This document shows positions 4,634-40,375 of a DNA stretch of 64,000 nt, in pieces. The notes under the pieces were generated by a model that searched no databases, was not told the origin of the DNA, and worked only from the letters and a program-made list of their open reading frames with translations. The translations under genes and the position numbers were made by a program. Every line of letters begins with the position of its first letter. Position 1 is the first letter of the stretch. The stretch lies in contig CAXXYH010000004.1 of NCBI GenBank assembly GCA_963677925.2, positions 1,120,001 to 1,184,000 on the forward strand. The letters are read 5' to 3'. This DNA is from Spirochaetia bacterium. GTDB taxonomy: Bacteria > Spirochaetota > Spirochaetia > UBA9216.

Positions 4634-6376
4634 ATGGCAGAAGAAAAAAATGAAAAACTTGAATTAATAAGGCACTCTACAGCGCATGTCATGGCCGAGG
4701 CAGTTTTAAAGCTGTTTCCCGAAGCCAAAATAGCAATCGGACCGTCAATAGAAAACGGATTCTATTATGACTTCGATCTGCCGCGCTCAATCGGTCCGGA
4801 TGATCTTGAAGAAATCACCAAGGTCATGCAGGAAATAATCAAAGAGAAAAAAGAGTTTGTACGCGCTGAAGTTTCTAGAGCGGAAGCCCTTGAGCTTTTC
4901 AAGGATCAGCCCTACAAGGTTGAGCTGATCAATGACCTTCCTGAAGATGCAGTCATTACAACCTACAACCAGGGCGGATTTACAGATCTTTGCCGCGGAC
5001 TCCATGTTGAAAATACAGGCAAACTCAATCCTCAGTCATTCAAGCTTCTTTCCATAGCCGGTGCGTACTGGCGCGGCGATGAAAGCAGGCCCATGCTTCA
5101 GCGTGTATACGGTACGGCCTGGAGCAATCCGAAGGAACTGAGGATGCATCTGCAGCATCTTGAAGAGATGGAAAAACGGGACCACAGAAAGCTCGGAAAA
5201 GAACTGGAACTGTTCAGTCTTCATGAAGAGGCTGGCCCGGGAATGGTTTACTGGCATCCGAAGGGCGCACGCATCAGGCTTGCAATAGAGGATTTCTGGA
5301 GACGGGAACACTACAAAAACGGCTATGAGATGATCTACACTCCGCATATCGGTAAATCCTGGCTCTGGGAAACCTCCGGCCATCTTGATTTCTATAAAGA
5401 GGGGATGTTCAACTCCATGGAAATGGATGCAAGCGATTACTACGCCAAGCCGATGAACTGTCCCTTTCATATTATGATCTACAACAACAAGAAGCACAGT
5501 TACCGTGATCTTCCCTGCAGATGGGCGGAGCTTGGAACTGTTTACCGTTATGAGAAATCAGGAGTTCTTCACGGACTGATGCGTGTCCGCGGATTTACCC
5601 AGGATGATGCGCACATTTTCTGTACACCGGATCAGATGGAAGATGAGATTGCAGAAACTCTGCGCTTCTCGCTTTACATGCTTAAATCTTTCGGCTTTAC
5701 CGAGTTCAAAGCCTACCTGTCTACCAAGCCGGGAGGCGGAAAGAGCGTCGGTGATGAATCCAAATGGGAAGCAGCAACTGAATCACTGCGGAAGGCTATT
5801 GTCAAAGAAGGTCTTGAGTATGAGGTTGATGAGGGCGGCGGAGCATTCTATGGTCCGAAAATCGATATCAAAATTAAGGATGCGATGGGACGCGCCTGGC
5901 AGCTGTCAACAATTCAGTTTGACTTCAACCTTCCTGAAAGGTTTAAAATGACCTTCGTAGATCAGGATGGAAAAGAAAAACAGCCCTACATGATTCACCG
6001 TGCACTGCTGGGTTCAATCGAAAGGTTCTTCGGCGTGCTTATCGAACACTTCGGCGGAGCCTTCCCTGTATGGCTTGCTCCAGTCCAGGTTGAAGTTATT
6101 CCTGTAGCTGAGGCCTTTGATGCTTATGCGAAGAAGATTACAGCTGAACTGAAGGCTGCCGGAATCAGGGTTGAGGCGGATCTCTCCGACGACCGCATGA
6201 ATGCCAAAATCAGAAATGCCCAGAACCAGAAGATTCCGTACATGCTTGTTCTTGGCGAGAAGGAAGAGGCTGAAGGTGCTGTCTCCGTCAGACTGCGCTC
6301 AGGAAAGCAGACCAATGGTGTTCCTTTTGCCGATTTTATGAGTCAGCTGAATGAGGCAATTGAGAGTAAGAGCTGA
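4634..6376 (+). CDS. thrS: Threonine--tRNA ligase (short form without the N-terminal TGS domain)
   Basis: RHSTAHV, DLCRGLH, RDHRKLG, KPMNCP, RVRGFTQDDAH, MIHRALLGSIERF; RBS ggggag before ATG 4634. Confidence 0.98.
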   Translation: MAEEKNEKLELIRHSTAHVMAEAVLKLFPEAKIAIGPSIENGFYYDFDLPRSIGPDDLEEITKVMQEIIKEKKEFVRAEVSRAEALELFKDQPYKVELINDLPEDAVITTYNQGGFTDLCRGLHVENTGKLNPQSFKLLSIAGAYWRGDESRPMLQRVYGTAWSNPKELRMHLQHLEEMEKRDHRKLGKELELFSLHEEAGPGMVYWHPKGARIRLAIEDFWRREHYKNGYEMIYTPHIGKSWLWETSGHLDFYKEGMFNSMEMDASDYYAKPMNCPFHIMIYNNKKHSYRDLPCRWAELGTVYRYEKSGVLHGLMRVRGFTQDDAHIFCTPDQMEDEIAETLRFSLYMLKSFGFTEFKAYLSTKPGGGKSVGDESKWEAATESLRKAIVKEGLEYEVDEGGGAFYGPKIDIKIKDAMGRAWQLSTIQFDFNLPERFKMTFVDQDGKEKQPYMIHRALLGSIERFFGVLIEHFGGAFPVWLAPVQVEVIPVAEAFDAYAKKITAELKAAGIRVEADLSDDRMNAKIRNAQNQKIPYMLVLGEKEEAEGAVSVRLRSGKQTNGVPFADFMSQLNEAIESKS

Positions 6377-7985: not shown

Positions 7986-9509
7986 ATGAAAGAGAGCCTG
8001 TCAAACCTTAAACAGCTAGGGCGAGAGATTTATTTAATGCAGCATGCCCAGGCCGTACTTGAATGGGACATGGAAACCCAGATGCCTGAAGACGGCGCCG
8101 AAGAACGTGCCGAACAGCTTGCACTTTTTGAAGGATTAACACACAGAAAAATAACTTCCCCTGAAATTGGACGTCTGCTGTCGTTTCTCGGCGCAGAGGA
8201 AGGTAAACCCGAGGGAAAGGGTGATTTCGATACCGCAGACAAGGCCTTCGTCCGTGAAATGTTCCGGATGTACAGTCATGCTTCCAAGCTGCCTGAAAGC
8301 CTTGTAACTGAACTTGCAAAACAGACCGGAATTTCCCACCAGGTATGGGTTGAGGCGAGAAAGAAGGCTGATTTCAGTATATTTGAAGATTCTCTTACAA
8401 AGATATATGAACTGAACCATCAGAAGGCTGAGAAACTCGGCTATAAAGAACATCCCTATGATGCCCTGCTTGATGAATATGAACCCTGGATGACTGCGTC
8501 CGAGGTTGAAAAGGTTTTTACCCCCCTTGCTGCTGAACTTTCCGCCCTGGTTGCGGATATTAAAAAGGCGGGTGCTCCTGACTCATCGTTTCTGGAAAAA
8601 AGCTACCCGACAGACCTGCAGGATAAGTTCGGCCGTATGCTTATCGACCGGATGGGATACCCGGAAAAGAGGGGCAGGCTGGATATATCGGCACATCCGT
8701 TTACAACGACCCTGGGTGCAGATGATGTAAGAATAACCACCCGCTACGATGAAAAACTCGTAATGAGCGGGGTATTCAGTAATATTCACGAATGCGGACA
8801 CGCCCTCTATGAGCTCGGTGTAGGAGATAATCTGAAAGGCGGAATCCTCGGTACCGGTGTGTCGCTTGGTATCCATGAATCACAGTCACGTTTCTGGGAA
8901 AACCTTGTAGGCCGCAGCCTTCCGTTCTGGAAGCATTTTTATCCTGAGTTTTCAAAGCTCTTTCCAGAGCAGACTAAGGGTGTCGATGTGGAAACCTTCT
9001 ATAAAGCCGTTAACAAGGTGACTCCGTCATTCATACGTATTGAAGCCGACGAGGTTACTTACAGTCTCCATGTGGTTCTCCGCTTTGAGCTTGAAAAGGA
9101 AGTTCTTTCCGGAAACCTCAAGGTTTCAGATCTTCCTGATGAATGGAACAGAAGGATGAAGAAATTTCTGGGTATAACCCCTGCCAACGATTCCGAAGGC
9201 GTGCTCCAGGATGTACACTGGTCTGCGGGGCTGATAGGTTATTTTCCGACCTATGCTCTTGGAAACCTCTACGGCGCCCAGTTTCTCAACAGCATGAAAA
9301 AGCAGCTGGGAGATGTGGACGGAATATTAGAATCAGGCGATCTGGGTACAATACTCGGGTGGCTGCGTGAGAATATCCACAGTCACGGTATGGTTTACCC
9401 CGCCTCCGAGCTCTGCAGAAGAGTCACAGGAGAGGATTTGAACGCCGCCTACTTTACAGACTACCTTCGGGATAAATTCGGCGGAATATATGGACTTCGC
9501 GGGAATTAA
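7986..9509 (+). CDS. Carboxypeptidase M32 (Taq-type)
   Basis: HPF, DVRITTRY, HECGH zinc motif, HESQSRFWEN, IRIEADE, GVLQDVHW. Confidence 0.96.
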   Translation: MKESLSNLKQLGREIYLMQHAQAVLEWDMETQMPEDGAEERAEQLALFEGLTHRKITSPEIGRLLSFLGAEEGKPEGKGDFDTADKAFVREMFRMYSHASKLPESLVTELAKQTGISHQVWVEARKKADFSIFEDSLTKIYELNHQKAEKLGYKEHPYDALLDEYEPWMTASEVEKVFTPLAAELSALVADIKKAGAPDSSFLEKSYPTDLQDKFGRMLIDRMGYPEKRGRLDISAHPFTTTLGADDVRITTRYDEKLVMSGVFSNIHECGHALYELGVGDNLKGGILGTGVSLGIHESQSRFWENLVGRSLPFWKHFYPEFSKLFPEQTKGVDVETFYKAVNKVTPSFIRIEADEVTYSLHVVLRFELEKEVLSGNLKVSDLPDEWNRRMKKFLGITPANDSEGVLQDVHWSAGLIGYFPTYALGNLYGAQFLNSMKKQLGDVDGILESGDLGTILGWLRENIHSHGMVYPASELCRRVTGEDLNAAYFTDYLRDKFGGIYGLRGN

Positions 9510-11505: not shown

Positions 11506-12546
11506 ATGAAAGCATTCAGAATATTTGAACCGGGGATAACAGGCATTACTGAAGAGCCTGAAATTGATATAATTGAAGATGATGAAGTTCTTCTGAGGCT
11601 GGTTAAGGTCGGGTTCTGCGGAAGCGATTTGAGCACCTTCAGGGGGCTGAACCCTAATGTAAGTTATCCGCGAATTCCCGGGCATGAGATAGCCGCAGTG
11701 GTCATCAGGAAAGGGAAGGATGTGCCGGACTCAATAACCGGTGGGCAGCGGGTTTCTGTTCTTCCATACACAAGCTGCGGAAAGTGTTCATCCTGCCTGT
11801 GCGGCCGGACTAATGCCTGTAAAGACAATCAGACCCTCGGCGTCCAGCGTGAGGGAGCTATGACAGAGTACATCACCGCCCCGTATACAAAATTGATAAC
11901 TGGTGTGGATGAACTGAGTTTTTCAGATATCGCACTTATTGAACCCCTGTCGGTCGGTTTTCATGCGGCCAGGCGGGCAGAAGTAAGCTCCGGTGAATAT
12001 GTCCTGGTTTTCGGCTGCGGCCTTGTCGGTCTGGGCGTAATTTCCAGAGCTGCAGGTGCGGGAGGCCGGGTAATAGCAGTCGATATTGATGATGACAAGC
12101 TGAAGCTGGCTGAAGCGATGGGTGCATCCTATGTGATCAACAGCAGAACTGAAAAACTTATAGGACGGGTTTCGGCCATAACAGGCGGGCATGGACCTGC
12201 CGCTGTTATTGAAGCCATTGGACTTAATGAAACCTATCTTGCATCTATAGAACTCGCTGCATACTGCGGGAGAGTCGTCTATGTGGGATATGCGAAGATG
12301 CCGATTGAATATGACACAAAGCAGTTTATACTCAAGGAGCTTCAGATTCGGGGCTCACGAAATGCCGAACGTAAAGATTTTGAGGATGTCCTTTCATATA
12401 TTGCCGATGGAAAGATTCCGGTAAATAAACTGGTTTCAGATGATGTTACAATGGAACAGGCTGGAAAAGCCCTGGTAGACTGGTCTGCGGATCCCGGGTC
12501 TGTTTCAAAGATCCTGGTAACAATAGCCGATGAGAAAAGCATTTGA
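11506..12546 (+). CDS. Zn-dependent dehydrogenase, L-galactonate 5-dehydrogenase (LgoD/YjjN)-like
   Basis: CGSD, GHE, CxxCxxC-x7-C, GCGLVG; clustered with uxaB and uxaA. Confidence 0.85.
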   Translation: MKAFRIFEPGITGITEEPEIDIIEDDEVLLRLVKVGFCGSDLSTFRGLNPNVSYPRIPGHEIAAVVIRKGKDVPDSITGGQRVSVLPYTSCGKCSSCLCGRTNACKDNQTLGVQREGAMTEYITAPYTKLITGVDELSFSDIALIEPLSVGFHAARRAEVSSGEYVLVFGCGLVGLGVISRAAGAGGRVIAVDIDDDKLKLAEAMGASYVINSRTEKLIGRVSAITGGHGPAAVIEAIGLNETYLASIELAAYCGRVVYVGYAKMPIEYDTKQFILKELQIRGSRNAERKDFEDVLSYIADGKIPVNKLVSDDVTMEQAGKALVDWSADPGSVSKILVTIADEKSI

Positions 12547-14035
12547 GGTTATACAAATGGATTTCCTGAACAGAAAAGATCTGAATATATCACAGCATCC
12601 AGAGAGGATTCTTCAGTTCGGCGAGGGTAATTTCCTGCGCTGCTTTTTCGACTGGCAGATAGATATCCTCAACGAGAAGTGCGGACTTGATGCCGGGGTT
12701 CTTGTAGTAAAGCCCCGGAATACTCCGCGTCCGCTTGATCTGAACAGCCAGGACGGACTCTATACATCCATTATCAGGGGATATGATGATGAGGGTTTGC
12801 TTCGCAATGAAAAGCGTCTTATTACCTGTATAAACCGGGAGATTTCAGTCTACAGTCAGTTTGATGAATATCTTGCAGCAGCGGCCAATCCAAAGCTTCG
12901 CTTTATCATTTCAAATACCACCGAGGCTGGAATTGTTTTCAATCCTGATGACAAATATGAGGACCGGCCCCAGTCTTCTTTTCCGGCAAAACTTACAAGG
13001 TTTCTGCATCAGCGGTATCTTGATTTCAAAGGTTCCGCAGGGTCGGGACTTATCCTGATACCCTGTGAACTGATTGATTATAACGGAGAAGCGCTTAAGG
13101 AAATTGTGCTTAAATATGCCGGTATATGGGAATTAGAAAAAGGATTCACAAACTGGCTTTTAAGCTCAAATACATTCTGTTCGACTCTCGTAGACCGTAT
13201 TGTAACAGGATATCCGGATGACGAGGTTCAGGTACTCACGGATGAGCTTGGATATAAAGATAATTTCATAACGGCCGGCGAATATTTTCATCTTTTTGTT
13301 ATACAGGGGCCGGCAGAGGTCCAGGAAGCACTTAAACTTTCAGGCAGCGGACTTGATGTAAGGTTTGCGGATGATTTAAAGCCTTATAAACAGAGAAAGG
13401 TTGGAATTCTAAACGGATGTCATACTGCCCTGGTTCCGGTTGCCTGGCTTTGCGGCTTTGAGACCGTAGGGGCCGCGGTTGCAGACAGCAGACTTTCAGA
13501 GTTTTTAAGCCGCCTTCTTGAAGCTGAAATCATCCCCGGACTCGTCTCTCCGGTTGCAGGACTGACTGAAGCGGAGCTGATGCAATACGCGGAGAGTGTG
13601 ATTGCCAGATTCAAAAACCCGTTTATAAACCATCAGCTTCTATCCATTTCACTTAATTCAATGACCAAGTTCAAGACGAGGCTTTTACCGCAGTTTCTTG
13701 AATACAACCTTACGAACGGCAAGCTTCCGCCTCTTATCTCCCTGTCTCTTGCTGCACTTGCCGTGTTTTACAGGGGAGAACTTGACGAAAGGACATGGCC
13801 GGTAAGCGATGATGAGGAGTTTATTGAGCTTTTCAGCCGCCTATGGAAGGATGGTGCTCAGCCGAATGAAGATCCCTCACTCAGGGCGGCTTCTGTTGCT
13901 TCCGGTATACTTGGACTCGATGCACACTGGGGGGTATCTCTAGGAAGCATGGCCGGACTGCAGGAAAAGTTGACTGAGAATATACTGAGCATATTGCGCA
14001 ATGGAATGCGGGAAACCCTGGAGGCCTGCCTGTGA
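12530..14035 (+). CDS. uxaB: Tagaturonate reductase (altronate oxidoreductase)
   Basis: ILQFGEGNFLR, SNTTEAGI, LVDRIVTGYP, RFKNPFINHQLLSISLNS. Confidence 0.95.
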   Translation: MRKAFEVIQMDFLNRKDLNISQHPERILQFGEGNFLRCFFDWQIDILNEKCGLDAGVLVVKPRNTPRPLDLNSQDGLYTSIIRGYDDEGLLRNEKRLITCINREISVYSQFDEYLAAAANPKLRFIISNTTEAGIVFNPDDKYEDRPQSSFPAKLTRFLHQRYLDFKGSAGSGLILIPCELIDYNGEALKEIVLKYAGIWELEKGFTNWLLSSNTFCSTLVDRIVTGYPDDEVQVLTDELGYKDNFITAGEYFHLFVIQGPAEVQEALKLSGSGLDVRFADDLKPYKQRKVGILNGCHTALVPVAWLCGFETVGAAVADSRLSEFLSRLLEAEIIPGLVSPVAGLTEAELMQYAESVIARFKNPFINHQLLSISLNSMTKFKTRLLPQFLEYNLTNGKLPPLISLSLAALAVFYRGELDERTWPVSDDEEFIELFSRLWKDGAQPNEDPSLRAASVASGILGLDAHWGVSLGSMAGLQEKLTENILSILRNGMRETLEACL

Positions 14036-18042: not shown

Positions 18043-19116
18043 TTGGCAGTTGAAATCGTTTATGAAGAAAATAATAAAATTGGTATAATTTTCCCTTTTG
18101 ATGCCCAGATTCTGGATATTGTACGCACAATACCCGGAAGACAATGGCAGCCCGCAAATAAAAAATGGACATTTCCGGATACTGATGCAAATATGCAGCA
18201 TTTTCTCTTATCATTATATAAAACCGGCAGGTTTAATGTGGATGAGAAGGCTCTCGAAAATCAGGAACCGTCTCATAGCCGCTATTTGGAAAAAATGCTT
18301 CAGTATCTAAAGCTTAGAGACTATAGTCCTCATACTATTGAAACGTATAAGATGCAGCTCAAGTGGTTCTTTGATAGAACAGAACTTTCTCCTTCAGAAG
18401 TCACGACCGAGGATATCAAATTATATCTGGAGAAAATGCGGACACTGGCGGGGTGTTCAAGAACATACTTTGTACAATGTGTGAGCGCCCTGAAAAGCTT
18501 CTATAAGTATGGTTATCCCGGCGGTCTGTTTAATCCTGCAGCATCGATTCCCATGCCGAAAAAAGAAAAGAAGTATCCGGATATTCTATCCAGGGAAGAA
18601 GTGAAGAAGATAATAACATCTCCGTCGAATATTAAGCACCGATTGCTATTATCATTAATATACTCTGCAGGTCTCCGAGTAAGCGAAGCCGTTATAATAC
18701 AGTTGCAGGATATTGATACCGATAGGAAAGTAATTCATATCAGGCAGGCAAAAGGACGAAAAGATAGATATGTAATGCTTTCAACTGAGATTATTAATAT
18801 GATTAATCAATACAGATCCAAAGTGATGGTGCATACATGGCTTTTTCCTGGCAGTGCAGGTGCGGATACCCATCTTGCTACAAGATCTGCACAGAATGCC
18901 TTTTATAAAGCTATAGAAGCAACAGGTATCGAAAAAAATGTAAGTATACATTCTTTAAGACATGCCTTTGCCACTCATCTGTTGGAAAACGGTACAGACC
19001 TGAGATATATTCAGGAGCTCTTAGGTCACCGTGATCCAAAAACAACACAGATTTATACACATGTAAGTACTAAAGACCTAAAAAATATAAATAGTCCACT
19101 GGACGGGTTATTATGA
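18043..19116 (+). CDS. Tyrosine recombinase, putative non-canonical integron integrase
   Basis: SAM-like domain (YSPHTIETY); catalytic R (GLRVSE), K (AKGRKDR), HxxR (HSLRH), H (LLGH), Y (TQIYTHV); directly abuts the cassette array. Confidence 0.93.
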   Translation: MAVEIVYEENNKIGIIFPFDAQILDIVRTIPGRQWQPANKKWTFPDTDANMQHFLLSLYKTGRFNVDEKALENQEPSHSRYLEKMLQYLKLRDYSPHTIETYKMQLKWFFDRTELSPSEVTTEDIKLYLEKMRTLAGCSRTYFVQCVSALKSFYKYGYPGGLFNPAASIPMPKKEKKYPDILSREEVKKIITSPSNIKHRLLLSLIYSAGLRVSEAVIIQLQDIDTDRKVIHIRQAKGRKDRYVMLSTEIINMINQYRSKVMVHTWLFPGSAGADTHLATRSAQNAFYKAIEATGIEKNVSIHSLRHAFATHLLENGTDLRYIQELLGHRDPKTTQIYTHVSTKDLKNINSPLDGLL

Positions 19117-19190
19117 ATAACAGGTTTATAAGGATTTAAGCTGGAGGGTTATATGAATGATATACCAGTTTATAATTCTGAGTTTATATG
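19105..19190 (+). promoter_or_regulatory. Putative attI-like primary recombination site
   Basis: Repeated GTT(T)ATA motifs (gggttattatgaat..gtttataa and gggttatatgaat..gtttataa); the first cassette left end TTATATGCAATGGACCCGAC starts at about 19184. Confidence 0.6.
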
Positions 19191-19265
19191 CAATGGACCC
19201 GACAAGAGGAAGACGCCCGGACCTCCGGCCGACGGGCGAAGAGACATAAAGGTGGGGGATTTTTT

Positions 19266-20735: not shown

Positions 20736-20788
20736 ATTAAGAATCCAGACCTAACTCCGTTGAACGGTCTGGATGTCGGGTCCAAAGC

Positions 20789-20882
20789 ATAAAACAGGGG
20801 CTATGTGTATCGTCGCTATGCGCTCCTCGGGCTGCGCCACATACGGCTACGCCGTACGTCACATAACACCGGGACGTTATGA
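20789..20882 (+). repeat. attC-like site 1
   Basis: ataaaac-aggggctatgtg...cacataacacc-gggac-gttatga. Confidence 0.88.
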
Positions 20883-20993
20883 GCAATAAGCCCGACAAGT
20901 AAAAGACGCCCGGACCTCCGGCCGACGGGCAAAGAGAGACAGTGTGATAAAATATTATACTAAAAAAGTAAATATAGAATTAAGGGTTTTCAT

Positions 20994-21660: not shown

Positions 21661-21755
21661 TCATAACAGGGGCTATGTGCTTCGTCGCTATACGCTCCTC
21701 GGGCTGCGCCACATACGGCATTCGCCGTACGTCACATAACCCCGGGACGTTATAG
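21661..21755 (+). repeat. attC-like site 2
   Basis: tcataac...cccgggac-gttatag. Confidence 0.9.
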
Positions 21756-21848
21756 CGCAATGAGCCTGACAAGATGAAAATCGCCCGGACCTCCGGCCGA
21801 CGGGCGAAGATATATATATGCTAAGTATCCAAAAAAGGTGATATGTAA

Positions 21849-22520: not shown

Positions 22521-22843
22521 GCATAACAGGGGCTATATGCTCGTCGCTAAACGCTCCTTGGGCTTCGCCACATTTTTATTTTCTGAATTGGGTAATTGGG
22601 TACAGCATTTAACAAGAGATTTGGAGTAGTCAAAACCTTTGTCACAGTTCTGGCTAAAGACACTCCGCGCTGATCGCGCTACGTTCCAGAACTGCGCCAA
22701 GCCTCGGAGACTCGGCCGGTTTCGCTACTCAAATCGTCGTTAAATGCACAGAAATGTGCCAATAGTTTATGATTGAGAAATACGGGTAAGTGGTGGTAAA
22801 ATTAAGAAAAATAAAAACGTCATATAACCCCGGGGCGTTATGA
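22521..22843 (+). repeat. Long attC-like site 3 with a nested attC
   Basis: Same outer stem as the short sites; contains gcatttaac (22605)...gttaaatgc (22747). Confidence 0.88.
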
Positions 22844-22960
22844 GCAATGAGCCCAACAAGAGGAAGACGCCCGGACCTCCGGCCGACGGGCGAAGAATCG
22901 ATTGGTTTGATTTTTATAACTGATAAGTGATGTCAAAAGTAATATAAAGAATAGGTTGGT

Positions 22961-23761: not shown

Positions 23762-24085
23762 GCATAACAGGGGCTATATGCATCGTCGCTAAATGCTCCT
23801 CGGGCTGCGCCACATTTTTATTTTGTAATTGGGTTAATAGGGTATAGCATTTAACAAAAGATTTGGAGTAGTCACAACCTTTGTCACAGTTCTGGCTAAA
23901 GACACTCCGCGCTGATCGCGCTGCGTTCCAGAACTGCGCCAAGCCTCGGTGACTCGGCCGGTTTCGCTACTCAAATCGTCGTTAAATGCACAGACATGTG
24001 CCAATAGTTTATGATTGTGAAATACGGGTAAGTGGTGGTAAAATTAAGAAAAATAAAAACGTCATATAACCCCGGGACGTTAGCT
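23762..24085 (+). repeat. Long attC-like site 4 with a nested attC
   Basis: Near-identical to site 3; inner element at 23847-23989. Confidence 0.88.
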
Positions 24086-25040: not shown

Positions 25041-25367
25041 AGCTAACAGGGGTTATTTGCTTCGTCGCTATGTGCTCCTCGGGCTTCGCAACATTTTTAT
25101 TTTTGTAAATGGACGATATGACAAAAGGCATTTAACAATGATTTGCAGCAGTCCTGGCTATTTTCACGGTTTTAGCTAAAGACGTTCCGCGCTGATCGCG
25201 CTGCACTCTAAAACCGAGCCAATGCCGTAGGAGACTACGGCCGCCAGGCAGCTGAAATCGGCGTTAAATGCACAGACATGTGCCAATAGTTTATGATTGA
25301 GAAATACGGGTAAGTGGTGGTAAAATTAAGAAAAATAAAAACGTCATATAACCCCGGGACGTTATAC
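25041..25367 (+). repeat. Long attC-like site 5 with a nested attC
   Basis: agctaac...gttatac; inner element at 25128-25271. Confidence 0.88.
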
Positions 25368-26783: not shown

Positions 26784-26875
26784 AGATAACAAGGGTTACA
26801 CGCTCCGGCCATACGGCCTGCGGGCTGAGCCACATTCGGCTACACCGAACGTCGTGTAACCCTGGAACGTTATCT
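26784..26875 (+). repeat. attC-like site 7
   Basis: agataac-aagggttacac...gtgtaaccct-ggaac-gttatct. Confidence 0.88.
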
Positions 26876-26990
26876 GCAATGTTTCCGCCAAGAGGAAGAT
26901 GCCCGGACCTCCGGCCGACGGGCGAAGAAGAATGAGGTTTGAATATACTAATTAGTGAGATAAGATAAAATAAAAAAATGAGGTAGCATT

Positions 26991-27637: not shown

Positions 27638-27816
27638 AGATAACAGCGGCTATGTGCGGCGTCGCTAAACGCTCCTTGGCCTACGGCATATTTTGTTTTG
27701 GCATCGCTTTTGCGAAGAGGTAGAAAAATATAGGGTAAAGGCGTCGAATGCAAAAGTGCTGCCAATCGGCCTGTAGGGCCGACCACAAAACATCACATAA
27801 CCGCGGGACGTTATAG
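27638..27816 (+). repeat. attC-like site 8 (extended apical arm)
   Basis: agataac-agcggctatgtg...cacataaccgc-gggac-gttatag. Confidence 0.85.
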
Positions 27817-27930
27817 GAAATATTTTGGCTAAGAGAAAGACGCCCGGACCTCCGGCCGACGGGCAATAAGGAAAAAAAGAATAAATTTTAAAATTGATAT
27901 ATTATGTCAATATATAAGAAATGAAACGTA

Positions 27931-29156: not shown

Positions 29157-29479
29157 CTATAACAGGGGCTATATGCTCAGCCCATTCGGGCTTCGGGCTG
29201 CGCCACATTTTTATTTTATGGATTGGGCTATTTGGGTATAGCATTTAACAAAAGTTTTGGAGCAGTCCTGGCTATTGTCATGATTCTGGCAGAGACGTTC
29301 CGCGCTGATCGCGCTGCACTCCAGAATCACGCCAATGCGCGCGAAGACACGCGCCGCCATGCAGCTCAAAACGTCGTTAAATGCACAGACATGCGCCAAT
29401 AGTTTGTGATTGGTAAATACGGGTAAGTGGTGGTAAAATTAAAAAAATAAAAACGTCATATAACCCCGGGACGTTATGC
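29157..29479 (+). repeat. Long attC-like site 9 with a nested attC
   Basis: ctataac...gttatgc; inner element at 29241-29384. Confidence 0.88.
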
Positions 29480-29950
29480 GGACATCGCCGGAGCATGGTT
29501 ATGGGGTGGAGAAAGTTCCGAACAAGAAGTGATTACCAAATAGTTTGCAATATTCAATTCGCCCTAGATTGAGGAAGATTTTTGATTTTGATTTGGATGT
29601 TGTTGGAAGAAGGTCGTTAAAATTGACGAAGCTTGTTCTGGCGTGAAAGAAAAAGTATTGTCTTAAAATTATCAAAATCTTTTTTGAAGATGGAGCAGGT
29701 TTTACCATTTTGCAAGTCTGATTCACTCGCATAGCTCGTTGACTTGCGACTTAATAAAAATGATTGTTTTACTTGCAAAGGGCGAATAGAATATTGAGAA
29801 GAAATAGAAAGAGAAGATTGTATAGATTATTTGATTGATCGGAATCTTTCTCTAATAAAGGCGACGTCGCATAACAGGGCACATGCGGCTACGGGGTCAA
29901 GCCCCTTCGCCCAAATTGGCCTGCGGCCAACTTCGCATATGCCCGGGACG
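29474..29950 (+). other. Cassette 10: ORF-less structured cassette (includes attC-like site 10, 29869-29956)
   Basis: No credible + strand ORF; nested inverted repeats; diverged tandem copy follows. Confidence 0.8.
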
Positions 29951-30426
29951 TTATGCGGACATCGCCGTAGCATGATCTTGGGGTGGAGAAAGTTCCGAAC
30001 CAGAAGTGATTACCAAATAGTTTGCAATATTCAATTCGCCCTGGATTGAGGGAGATTTTGGATTTTGATTTTGTGGTTGTCAGAAGAAAGCCGTTGCATC
30101 TGACGAAGTTTATTCTGACGTGGAAAAAAGTATTGTTTTATAATTATCAAAATCTGCTTCGTGGACTTGGCAGGGTTTTCCGTTTGGCAAGTCTGCCTCA
30201 CTCGCTTTGCTCGTTGACTTGCAGGTGAAATAAAAATGATTGTGAAAGTCGCAAAGGGCGAATAGAATATTGGGTAGAAATGGTAAGAGGAGATTTGTTA
30301 GGTCATTTGATTGATCGGAATCTTTCTCTAATAAAGGCGACGTCGCATAACAGGGCACATGCGGCTACGGGGGCAAGCCCCTTCGCCCAAATTGGCCTGC
30401 GGCCAACTTCGCATATGCCCGGGACG
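29951..30426 (+). other. Cassette 11: ORF-less structured cassette, paralogue of cassette 10 (includes attC-like site 11, 30345-30432)
   Basis: 476 bp versus 477 bp; stems conserved while linkers have diverged. Confidence 0.8.
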
Positions 30427-30500
30427 TTATAGGAAATGCCCATCAAAATCTTTGAAAGATCCTCGCCATCCATGGCTCGGTTTAGAAGAATAGAAAGAAG

Positions 30501-31093: not shown

Positions 31094-31188
31094 CTATAAC
31101 AGGGGCTATGTGCTTCGTCGCTATGCGCTCCTCGGGCTGCGCCACATACGGCTTACGCCGTACGTCACATAACCCCTGGACGTTAGCT
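31094..31188 (+). repeat. attC-like site 12
   Basis: ctataac...gttagct. Confidence 0.9.
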
Positions 31189-31313
31189 GAAATGCCCCCG
31201 CGAAGAGAAAGACGCCCGGACCTCCGGCCGGCGGGCGATAAGGAAATTATAATATGCATAATTGATTTACAAGTCTAAATATAGTACTATATAAGCACTA
31301 ATAGGAGTTTATT

Positions 31314-33643: not shown

Positions 33644-33725
33644 AGATAACAAGGGTTACACGCTCCGGCCATTCGGCCTACGCCCAAATTGCTGCGCAAC
33701 TTCGCTTAACCCTGGAACGTTAGCT
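33644..33725 (+). repeat. attC-like site 15
   Basis: agataac-aagggtta...taaccct-ggaac-gttagct. Confidence 0.88.
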
Positions 33726-33846
33726 GAAATGCAACCGCTAAGAGAAAGACGCCCGGACCTCCGGTCGACGGGCGATCATGAAGAGAAAGAATATAAAAAT
33801 TGACATGATATATATCAAGGTATATACTTAAAATAGAGGTGGGTAT

Positions 33847-37116: not shown

Positions 37117-37211
37117 ATATAACAGGGGCTATGTGCTTCATCGCTGTGCGCTCCTCGGGCTGCGCCACATACGGCTTGCGCCGTACGTCACATATCCCCG
37201 TGAAGTTAGAT
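37117..37211 (+). repeat. attC-like site 18
   Basis: atataac...gttagat; slightly degenerate. Confidence 0.82.
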
Positions 37212-40175: not shown

Positions 40176-40257
40176 CCCTAACAGCGAATATGCGGTTCTA
40201 CATGGCTTCAACCAAATTAGCCTGCGGCCAACTTCGCATATTCGCGGGACGTAATCT
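40176..40257 (+). repeat. attC-like site 22 (last site; GTT mutated to GTA)
   Basis: ccctaac-agcgaatatgcg...cgcatattcgc-gggac-gtaatct. Confidence 0.8.
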
Positions 40258-40375
40258 GAAATGCCACCGCGAAGATGTAGCTGCCCGGGTCTCCGGCCGG
40301 CGGGTGATTCTGCAGAGAAAGAATTAAAAACTGTCACGATATATCAAGGTCTATACTTTAAGTAGAGCTGAGTAT

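Follow-up and report, generated by a model that had tools for sequence, protein, structure and literature searches.

What is a HARP-like domain doing at the N-terminus of a tyrosine recombinase that heads an array of integron-like cassettes? The question is raised by a locus in the genome of a Spirochaetia bacterium (GenBank assembly GCA_963677925.2, contig CAXXYH010000004.1), within a stretch of 64,000 nucleotides that we analysed as a whole and refer to as the window (contig positions 1,120,001 to 1,184,000, forward strand). The gene, taken from the list of open reading frames (ORFs), lies at 18043..19116 on the + strand, starts with TTG, the sole start codon in the open frame, and encodes a protein of 357 amino acids (aa). 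An earlier note on this DNA had likened the N-terminal region to HARP and suggested that it might replace the insertion typical of integron integrases (IntI), which the enzyme was thought to lack. In the analysis described here the likeness turned out to reflect, with high probability, real homology, on which Pfam, a profile of the N-domains and Foldseek with an AlphaFold model agree, and the idea of replacement gave way to that of an added module, which may serve the recombinase as an accessory binder of structured DNA.

From its N-terminus onward the protein consists of the HARP-like domain, a linker, a SAM-like core-binding domain and a catalytic domain, all given here in + strand coordinates. 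The region that had been flagged, residues 1-76 (18043..18270), was characterized by alignment, AlphaFold2, Foldseek, Pfam and profile search; the predicted structure places the folded HARP-like domain at residues 3-60 (18049-18222), with the Pfam HARP match (PF07443) at residues 17-48 (18091-18186). The linker, recognized by its low model confidence, spans residues 61-81 (18223..18285) and is followed by the SAM-like domain at residues 82-156 (18286..18510; PF13495 and PF02899) and by the catalytic domain at residues 182-343 (18586..19071; PF00589), which is without the IntI-specific insertion of ~31+10 residues. Whole-protein Pfam scores were 2.3e-42 for Phage_integrase and 7.9e-12 for Phage_int_SAM_4. 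The earlier estimate of about 75 aa ahead of the SAM-like domain was thus right about the extra region and somewhat short of its length, which is 81 residues given the Pfam start of the SAM-like domain at residue 82; the peptide that it singled out, IFPFDAQILDIVRTIPGRQWQPANKKWTFP, corresponds to residues 16-45.

Most of the 120 best matches in a search of 5.8 billion proteins covered 97-100% of the window recombinase, and 65 full-length homologues among them were aligned with its first 81 residues (alignment A1). Across these 66 rows W42 is invariant, G32, W35 and P45 are at least 90% conserved, and the pattern PY..(x)..IR.IPGR.W.P..K.W..P recurs. With A1 as input, AlphaFold2 modelled the 81 aa with a mean predicted local distance difference test score (pLDDT) of 86.9 and a predicted template modelling score of 0.71, predicting strands at residues 4-8 and 12-16, a helix at 21-28, strands at 34-36 and 41-45 and a helix at 48-60, that is, a strand-strand-helix-strand-strand-helix order over residues 4-60. 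For the linker the mean pLDDT of the 10-residue blocks is 81, 64 and 55, and the linker varies in length and sequence among homologues, its columns being gappy both in A1 and in the N-domain alignment A2 described below. Judged by alignment and model, the N-terminal stretch is a conserved, folded domain and not a chance motif.

The relationship of this domain to HARP emerged from several directions. PF07443 matched the isolated 81 aa with an E-value of 1e-5 and 25.4 bits, just above the gathering score of 25 (22.3 bits, below that score, on the whole protein), and when the 66 rows of A1 were scanned singly it was found at E<=0.01 in 32, with a best E-value of 4.1e-8; it also appears among the precomputed domains of 14 of the 120 best matches of the recombinase. 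We then built a profile from A2, which holds recombinase N-domains only (26 of 75 aa each, from the window and 25 spirochaete loci), and ran it against 1.84 billion representative proteins, obtaining 5260 matches at E<=1e-3, of which 913 reached 1e-10 or better; the top 150 had one to four matched stretches each and were 73-1102 aa long. Thirty of these 150, a non-random sample chosen for varied length, comprised 14 SNF2-family helicases (13 of which also match Pfam HARP), 12 tyrosine recombinases and four short or unannotated proteins (two with HARP only, one with HARP and DUF5710, one without a match). Since a profile of recombinase N-domains hits SNF2 proteins that carry Pfam HARP, the N-domains alone recover the tandem-HARP-plus-SNF2 architecture.

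Structural comparison led to the same family. The AlphaFold model of the N-domain, compared by Foldseek, had as its top Protein Data Bank (PDB) match 4o66, the HARP substrate-recognition domain of SMARCAL1 (probability 0.99, template modelling scores 0.51/0.60, E 0.03), which VIA-align scored at Z 4.6 with a root-mean-square deviation (rmsd) of 1.8 over 47 residues. VIA-align also matched the N-terminal domain of T4 UvsW (Z 5.7), the C-terminal domain of T4 MotA (Z 5.4), the N-terminal half of XPB (Z 5.2) and the C-terminal domain of Mfd (Z 5.0). The viral structures of BFVD contributed, among others, a protein of a Bacillus phage annotated as 'HepA-related protein', superposed at an rmsd of 1.5 across 57 columns, and a phage protein 73 aa long whose name refers to SMARCAL. 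The paper that solved the SMARCAL1 domain reportedly grouped several of these DNA-binding domains with HARP. A phmmer search of PDB sequences with the 81 aa gave chance-level matches only (E 0.46 or worse). Taking the Pfam, profile and structure results together, we are highly confident that the N-domain is homologous to HARP.

We turned to the recombinase core, whose best curated model is NCBIfam NF040815 ('site-specific tyrosine recombinase/integron integrase', XerA type), matched at 232.5 bits (cut-off 220) over model positions 2-261 of 263. The integron integrase model TIGR02249 scored 194.2 bits, below its cut-off of 265, in two stretches with the central part of the model left unmatched, and both the split and the low score arise because the IntI insertion is absent. 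In alignment A4, which joins the window protein with the IntI-type relatives L006, L009, L013 and L016 and the short forms L010, L011, L023 and L025, the segment from the KGxKDR motif to the HxLRH motif is longer by ~31+10 residues in the four IntI-type relatives; at these positions the window protein and the short forms are all gapped, which bears out the earlier premise of a missing insertion, and on TIGR02249 the short forms L011 and L023 behave like the window protein. The catalytic residues R212, K237, H303, R306, H329 and Y338 are invariant in A4 and in alignment A5. By sequence, the window enzyme is a XerA/IntI-like tyrosine recombinase with intact catalytic residues and without the IntI insertion.

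The DNA that follows the gene looks like the rest of an integron. Directly after the stop codon lies an attI-like region (19117..19184, 68 nt, + strand) with repeated GTTTATA/GTTATA boxes, in three to four direct repeats, and GAGTT at its end. Compared with the related locus L001, whose recombinase is 96% identical, 85 of 95 intergenic columns are identical up to this GAGTT (window position 19184) and the sequences are unrelated beyond it; the break at 19184/19185 therefore means that the two genomes carry different first cassettes joined at one point, as expected of attI. Cassettes have thus been turned over at this point between close relatives. In one other genus, the region behind the recombinase gene is likewise shared by related genomes as far as ...TTTGAGTTA, past which they differ, and the attI-like region there has paired repeats, GCGTTTATACG.

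From 19185 to 40256 on the + strand extends a cassette array, delineated by repeat families, GC content, a box regular expression and bottom-strand folding. Its GC content is 0.24-0.43, against 0.39-0.51 in the flanks, ORFs of at least 120 aa lie nearly all on the + strand in the low-GC stretch, to at least 40.3 kb, and between the ORFs of the array stand repeated elements. The regular expression, TAAC...imperfect palindrome...GTTA, found 18 distinct elements in the window, to which a scan for complementary arms added one at 37121-37207; the first attC-like site is at 20792-20881 and the last one found at 40179-40256. Most are 75-91 nt long, and some have loops of 143-333 nt. The bottom strand was the more stable fold in all eight sites folded both ways, and RNAalifold, applied to 13 bottom strands, predicted an outer stem of 5 bp formed by the AAC/GTT boxes, an internal loop of 4 nt on one side only, a stem of 11 bp and a branched loop, with compensatory changes in 13 of the 28 pairs. 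In sequence and predicted fold, the repeated elements have the anatomy of attC sites. No Rfam family was found in the window at gathering thresholds.

The cassettes show several further regularities. Nine have a conserved leader of ~59 nt after the R' box of attC (19184-19242, 20877-20935, 21752-21810, 22838-22896, 26870-26928, 27811-27869, 31183-31241, 33720-33778 and 40252-40310), with a GC hairpin (GACGCCCGG...CCGACGGGCG) just ahead of the ribosome-binding site; shorter hairpins occupy the corresponding position in the Treponema-type arrays L036, L059 and L063. This leader may control cassette translation or belong to the recombination site. Four attC-like sites (23765-24084, 25044-25366, 29160-29478 and 22524-22840) contain a conserved loop insert of ~230-240 nt (families D5 and D9, 70-94% alike), possibly a small mobile element, or the gene of a structured RNA, for which attC loops are the target. 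A 41-nt hairpin (CCAGACC...GGTCTGG, family D12) stands ahead of attC in eight cassettes, at 20740-20780 and in seven further copies, and has the look of a terminator or of a further structured module at the cassette boundary. At 29452-30430 a cassette of ~476 nt is present in two tandem copies (families D15, D16 and D20, 77-92% identity).

Having described the locus, we asked how widely its architecture is shared. When the 81-aa N-domain was searched for in the phylum (401 genomes, E<=1e-3), it turned up in 61 genomes and in 29 of 153 genera, and in all 29 loci fetched it was collinear with the recombinase core, 28 times as a single tblastn piece. The exception, L007 (identical to L049, G281:C5), consists of three pieces in different frames and seems broken, and nine repeated attC-like sites remain downstream of it. 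A second match in the window's own genome (G000:C3:920831-920995, E 0.002) was rejected as spurious, being an alternative frame with an internal TAG over sensor-kinase/response-regulator genes. In the long forms L006, L009, L013 and L016 (396-411 aa, one family, in the same class as the window genome), the N-domain precedes a TIGR02249 match of 400-426 bits that runs in a single stretch across the whole model, and by these matches the four are true integron integrases with both insertion and N-domain.

Arrays accompany many of these genes. The arm-complementarity scanner was specific and recovered only 9-10 of the window sites, its looser settings being noisy (16 matches in a shuffled window), and a fold-energy scanner was dropped because energies from DNA parameters were too weak; arrays of relatives were therefore counted as self-similar repeat sites and then checked by eye. 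Of 38 contexts fetched, 26 extend 10 kb or more past the gene, and in 17 of these the downstream part contains at least three repeated sites, as compared with none or one in the 3 kb upstream. Arrays follow eight of nine long forms, a class in which the insertion was verified in three (L036, L037 and L038) and inferred from the tblastn span in the other six, and nine of 17 short forms (L042, L044, L045, L049, L052, L053, L054, L055 and L065); a further short form, L039, has heterogeneous attC-like hairpins. The repeats examined are attC-like, being long imperfect palindromes bordered by ...CTAAC and GTTAG... boxes, with the bottom strand usually the more stable. Many assemblies are broken 0.1-3.5 kb downstream of a HARP recombinase (L035, L040, L041, L043, L048, L061, L066 and L069-L071), and as repeated attC sites would cause such breaks, arrays are probably undercounted. 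One genome, G216, has three short HARP recombinases of identical score (on C1, C6 and C7) and a fourth related copy (on C2), and several of its contigs end near the gene.

Beyond these genomes, a metagenome scan yielded 80 loci, 11 of them with the N-domain, on contigs mostly too short to judge; paired attC-like repeats were found in four of the five N-domain loci with at least 3 kb downstream. At one of the metagenomic loci, L077, the HARP recombinase gene is flanked on either side by attC-like repeats (5446-5558, 8042-8182, 12522-12662 and 13607-13636), an arrangement that would suit a gene within an array or one that is a cassette in its own right. A search of genome contigs with a single protein returned only one close relative with the domain, and of 402 stretches that a search with A1 picked out on viral contigs none was confirmed, a result probably due to the use of the 81-aa first row for confirmation. 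Eleven recombinases of 447-789 aa (P0123, P0126, P0127, P0129, P0133, P0134, P0138, P0164, P0177, P0187 and P0256) have two to four tandem HARP-like copies ahead of the same insertion-less core as the window enzyme.

How, then, might the domain serve the enzyme? We favour, while judging the matter evenly poised, a reading in which a HARP-family domain is tethered to a recombinase occupying the place of an integron integrase and acts there as an accessory binder of structured DNA. The SAM-like and catalytic core would catalyse exchange of both kinds, attI x attC and attC x attC, with HARP held on a flexible linker of ~20 residues as an additional DNA-binding unit. It may recognize a feature of the folded bottom-strand attC, such as the base of the stem or the three-way junction of the loop, or alternatively the junctions between single- and double-stranded DNA at which attC sites fold, and its binding would help to recruit and orient the enzyme. 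We infer both that this enzyme performs the exchange and what its HARP domain would bind. The HARP domain of SNF2 annealing helicases binds forks and junctions, and the long, branched attC sites found here would suit a domain of that family. HARP is taken as an added module, not a replacement, because the true integron integrases of the phylum carry HARP and the insertion together.

Other DNA targets can be imagined. The chief alternative, which we consider unlikely, is that the N-domain is an arm-type binder that reads the GTTTATA/GTTATA boxes of attI as sequence-specific duplex and so gives the reaction its direction. Its position N-terminal to the core-binding domain is where arm-binding domains sit, the attI-like region offers direct repeats in the window and paired ones in the other genus, and the MotA domain found as a fold relative was, by its entry title, solved with double-stranded DNA. 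Sequence homology points away from such a role and toward HARP of the SNF2 annealing helicases, with their function at forks and junctions; the direct repeats of classical attI are bound by the integrase core, and the presence of two to four tandem copies of the domain in other recombinases also argues against an arm-type binder. A different idea, to which we assign very little probability, dispenses with contact to att DNA altogether and makes the domain a protein-contact or targeting module, for recruitment to forks or assembly of the synaptic tetramer. HARP-bearing helicases do work at replication forks, and a flexible linker and a copy number of one to four are typical of recruitment modules, but no result indicates a partner, and the fold relatives given by VIA-align are DNA-binding domains, as judged from entry titles and general knowledge.

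Several points weigh against the view of HARP as an accessory binder at the head of an integron. To begin with, the DNA target of the N-domain is pure inference on our part. The structural matches are middling (Foldseek E 0.03, VIA-align Z below 6), as expected of a domain of only ~60 residues, and a domain of eIF2D, seemingly an unrelated small alpha/beta fold, reaches Z 5.9. A word-indexed search with residues 1-75 against proteins longer than 625 aa gave no match, whereas the exhaustive profile search found many. Seven of the 17 short-form contexts are without an array (L046, L050, L051, L056, L057, L060 and L068, six of them of one genus), so the family is not always linked to arrays. Finally, the window genome holds a canonical IntI on contig C3 (G000 C3:128200-129459, locus L160:3700-4959), of 419 aa and with the insertion, which scores 382.9 bits on TIGR02249 (cut-off 265), and the attC family of the window is matched six times on the minus strand of that contig, five times within ~21 kb upstream of the IntI (125742, 124455, 120861, 119469 and 107532) and once ~75 kb away (53455). 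This IntI could act on the window array in trans.

The C3 locus is a classical divergent integron. Its integrase has an N-terminal extension of ~110 aa without a Pfam match, in which HARP was ruled out (hhalign probability 0.15%), and upstream of it small toxin-antitoxin-like ORFs lie on the minus strand; contig C4 of this genome carries two further Xer-like genes. A division of labour can be pictured, in which cassettes are moved in trans by this IntI, leaving the HARP recombinase to another task such as resolving or inverting DNA or mobilizing itself. Besides the IntI and the window-family sites adjoining it, the attC-like sites on both sides of the L077 gene and the seven array-free contexts speak for such a division. 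We nonetheless hold it to be improbable: among 22 other short-form genomes (ten with arrays, completeness 89-100%, some with masked stretches that could hide a gene, which again counts against the accessory-binder view), none had a TIGR02249 match over the cut-off, the only matches being the HARP recombinases themselves. The position at the head of the array is kept, the attI-like site breaks exactly at GAGTT between relatives, and the catalytic residues are intact.

The accessory-binder reading must also be set against the proposal of the earlier note, that HARP functionally substitutes for the missing IntI insertion, whose I2 helix reads the extrahelical bases of folded attC. There is a point in its favour: insertion-less enzymes are found at attI/attC arrays in genomes without a detected canonical IntI, so that another element must supply structure and strand selectivity. 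The proposal is weakened by comparison with the long relatives, since all four of those tested (TIGR02249 400-426 bits, cut-off 265) have insertion and N-domain together, and arrays in eight of nine long-form contexts mark the two features as co-existing, not alternative. A quick tree was computed by maximum likelihood from the core alone (window residues 82-355, insert columns removed, 75 rows, rooted on a long Xer outgroup), with 30 of the 59 metagenome rows without the N-domain and one empty row left out. The five insertion-bearing rows form one clade (Shimodaira-Hasegawa-like approximate likelihood ratio test, SH-aLRT, 100) nested among HARP-bearing short forms, and the window protein groups with four HARP-bearing proteins (SH-aLRT 100); the backbone is weakly supported, and several rows labelled as lacking HARP begin at contig ends, which makes that label unsafe. 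The nesting is consistent with an earlier arrival of HARP than of the insertion in this group and, within the limits of that weak backbone, fits HARP first better than replacement. Substitution thus seems to us distinctly improbable.

A bolder extension of the accessory-binder reading is conceivable, though we lean against it: HARP recombinases without the insertion would constitute another, widely distributed class of integron integrase that may predate IntI and in which HARP, instead of or beside the I2 helix, reads the folded attC. Were this true, working integrons would exist in lineages thought to be without them, and the I2 insertion would not be required for recombination of single-stranded attC. 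Current accounts make the recombination of folded single-stranded attC depend on the IntI-specific insertion, and here insertion-less HARP recombinases stand at attI/attC arrays in several genera without a detected canonical IntI; the combination of HARP with an insertion-less core suggests that integron enzymes can be built to a second design, one not described before. If the enzyme does move cassettes, surveys that define integrons by the insertion would count too few of them, classing these arrays as orphan attC clusters, HARP would gain a functional context outside SNF2 motors, and the order in which integron parts were acquired would become testable.

The domain combination itself is already visible in databases through the PF07443 annotation. 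Full-text searches of the literature, which covered papers apart from their supplements, turned up none connecting HARP to tyrosine recombinases or to integron integrases, and two integron papers probed for such an N-domain (PMC2426708 and PMC3607928) make no mention of it. According to the abstract of PMC3607928, Treponema is the only spirochaete clade with integrons, a statement on which the arrays in other families of the phylum bear.

Set beside known systems, the window enzyme combines parts of several. Its N-domain resembles HARP (PF07443; PDB 4o66) of the SMARCAL1/HepA-related SNF2 helicases in motif and fold order, but those helicases carry tandem HARP copies before an SNF2 ATPase, whereas the window enzyme has a single copy on a tyrosine recombinase and no motor, so ATP-driven annealing is not expected of it. 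In integrases of the lambda type, too, the core-binding domain is preceded by a small domain that binds DNA; these N-terminal arm-binding domains gave no sequence or fold match in the phmmer, Foldseek and VIA-align results, which leaves room for some similarity, and the homology found here is to HARP. The XerA-type enzymes (NF040815) provide the best PDB sequence matches, 4a8e (2e-40) and 5hxy (4.1e-35), which align from query residue 74-78 onward and hence have no HARP. Enzymes of that type serve chromosome dimer resolution at dif, a role that fits a gene at the head of an attC array poorly.

The closest parallel is with IntI. The core of the window enzyme is nearest to the IntI/XerA group, it is followed by an attI-like site and then an attC-like array, and turnover occurs at GAGTT. 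It differs from IntI in being without the insertion, in scoring 194 bits where the TIGR02249 cut-off is 265, and in its extra N-terminal HARP: in the Vibrio IntI4 structure 2a3v (320 aa), chain residues 241-318 match query residues 277-354, leaving no room for an N-extension of ~80 residues. In layout, with gene and cassettes on one strand, as is also the case in the long-form relatives, the locus resembles the same-orientation chromosomal integrons of the Treponema type (PMC3607928).

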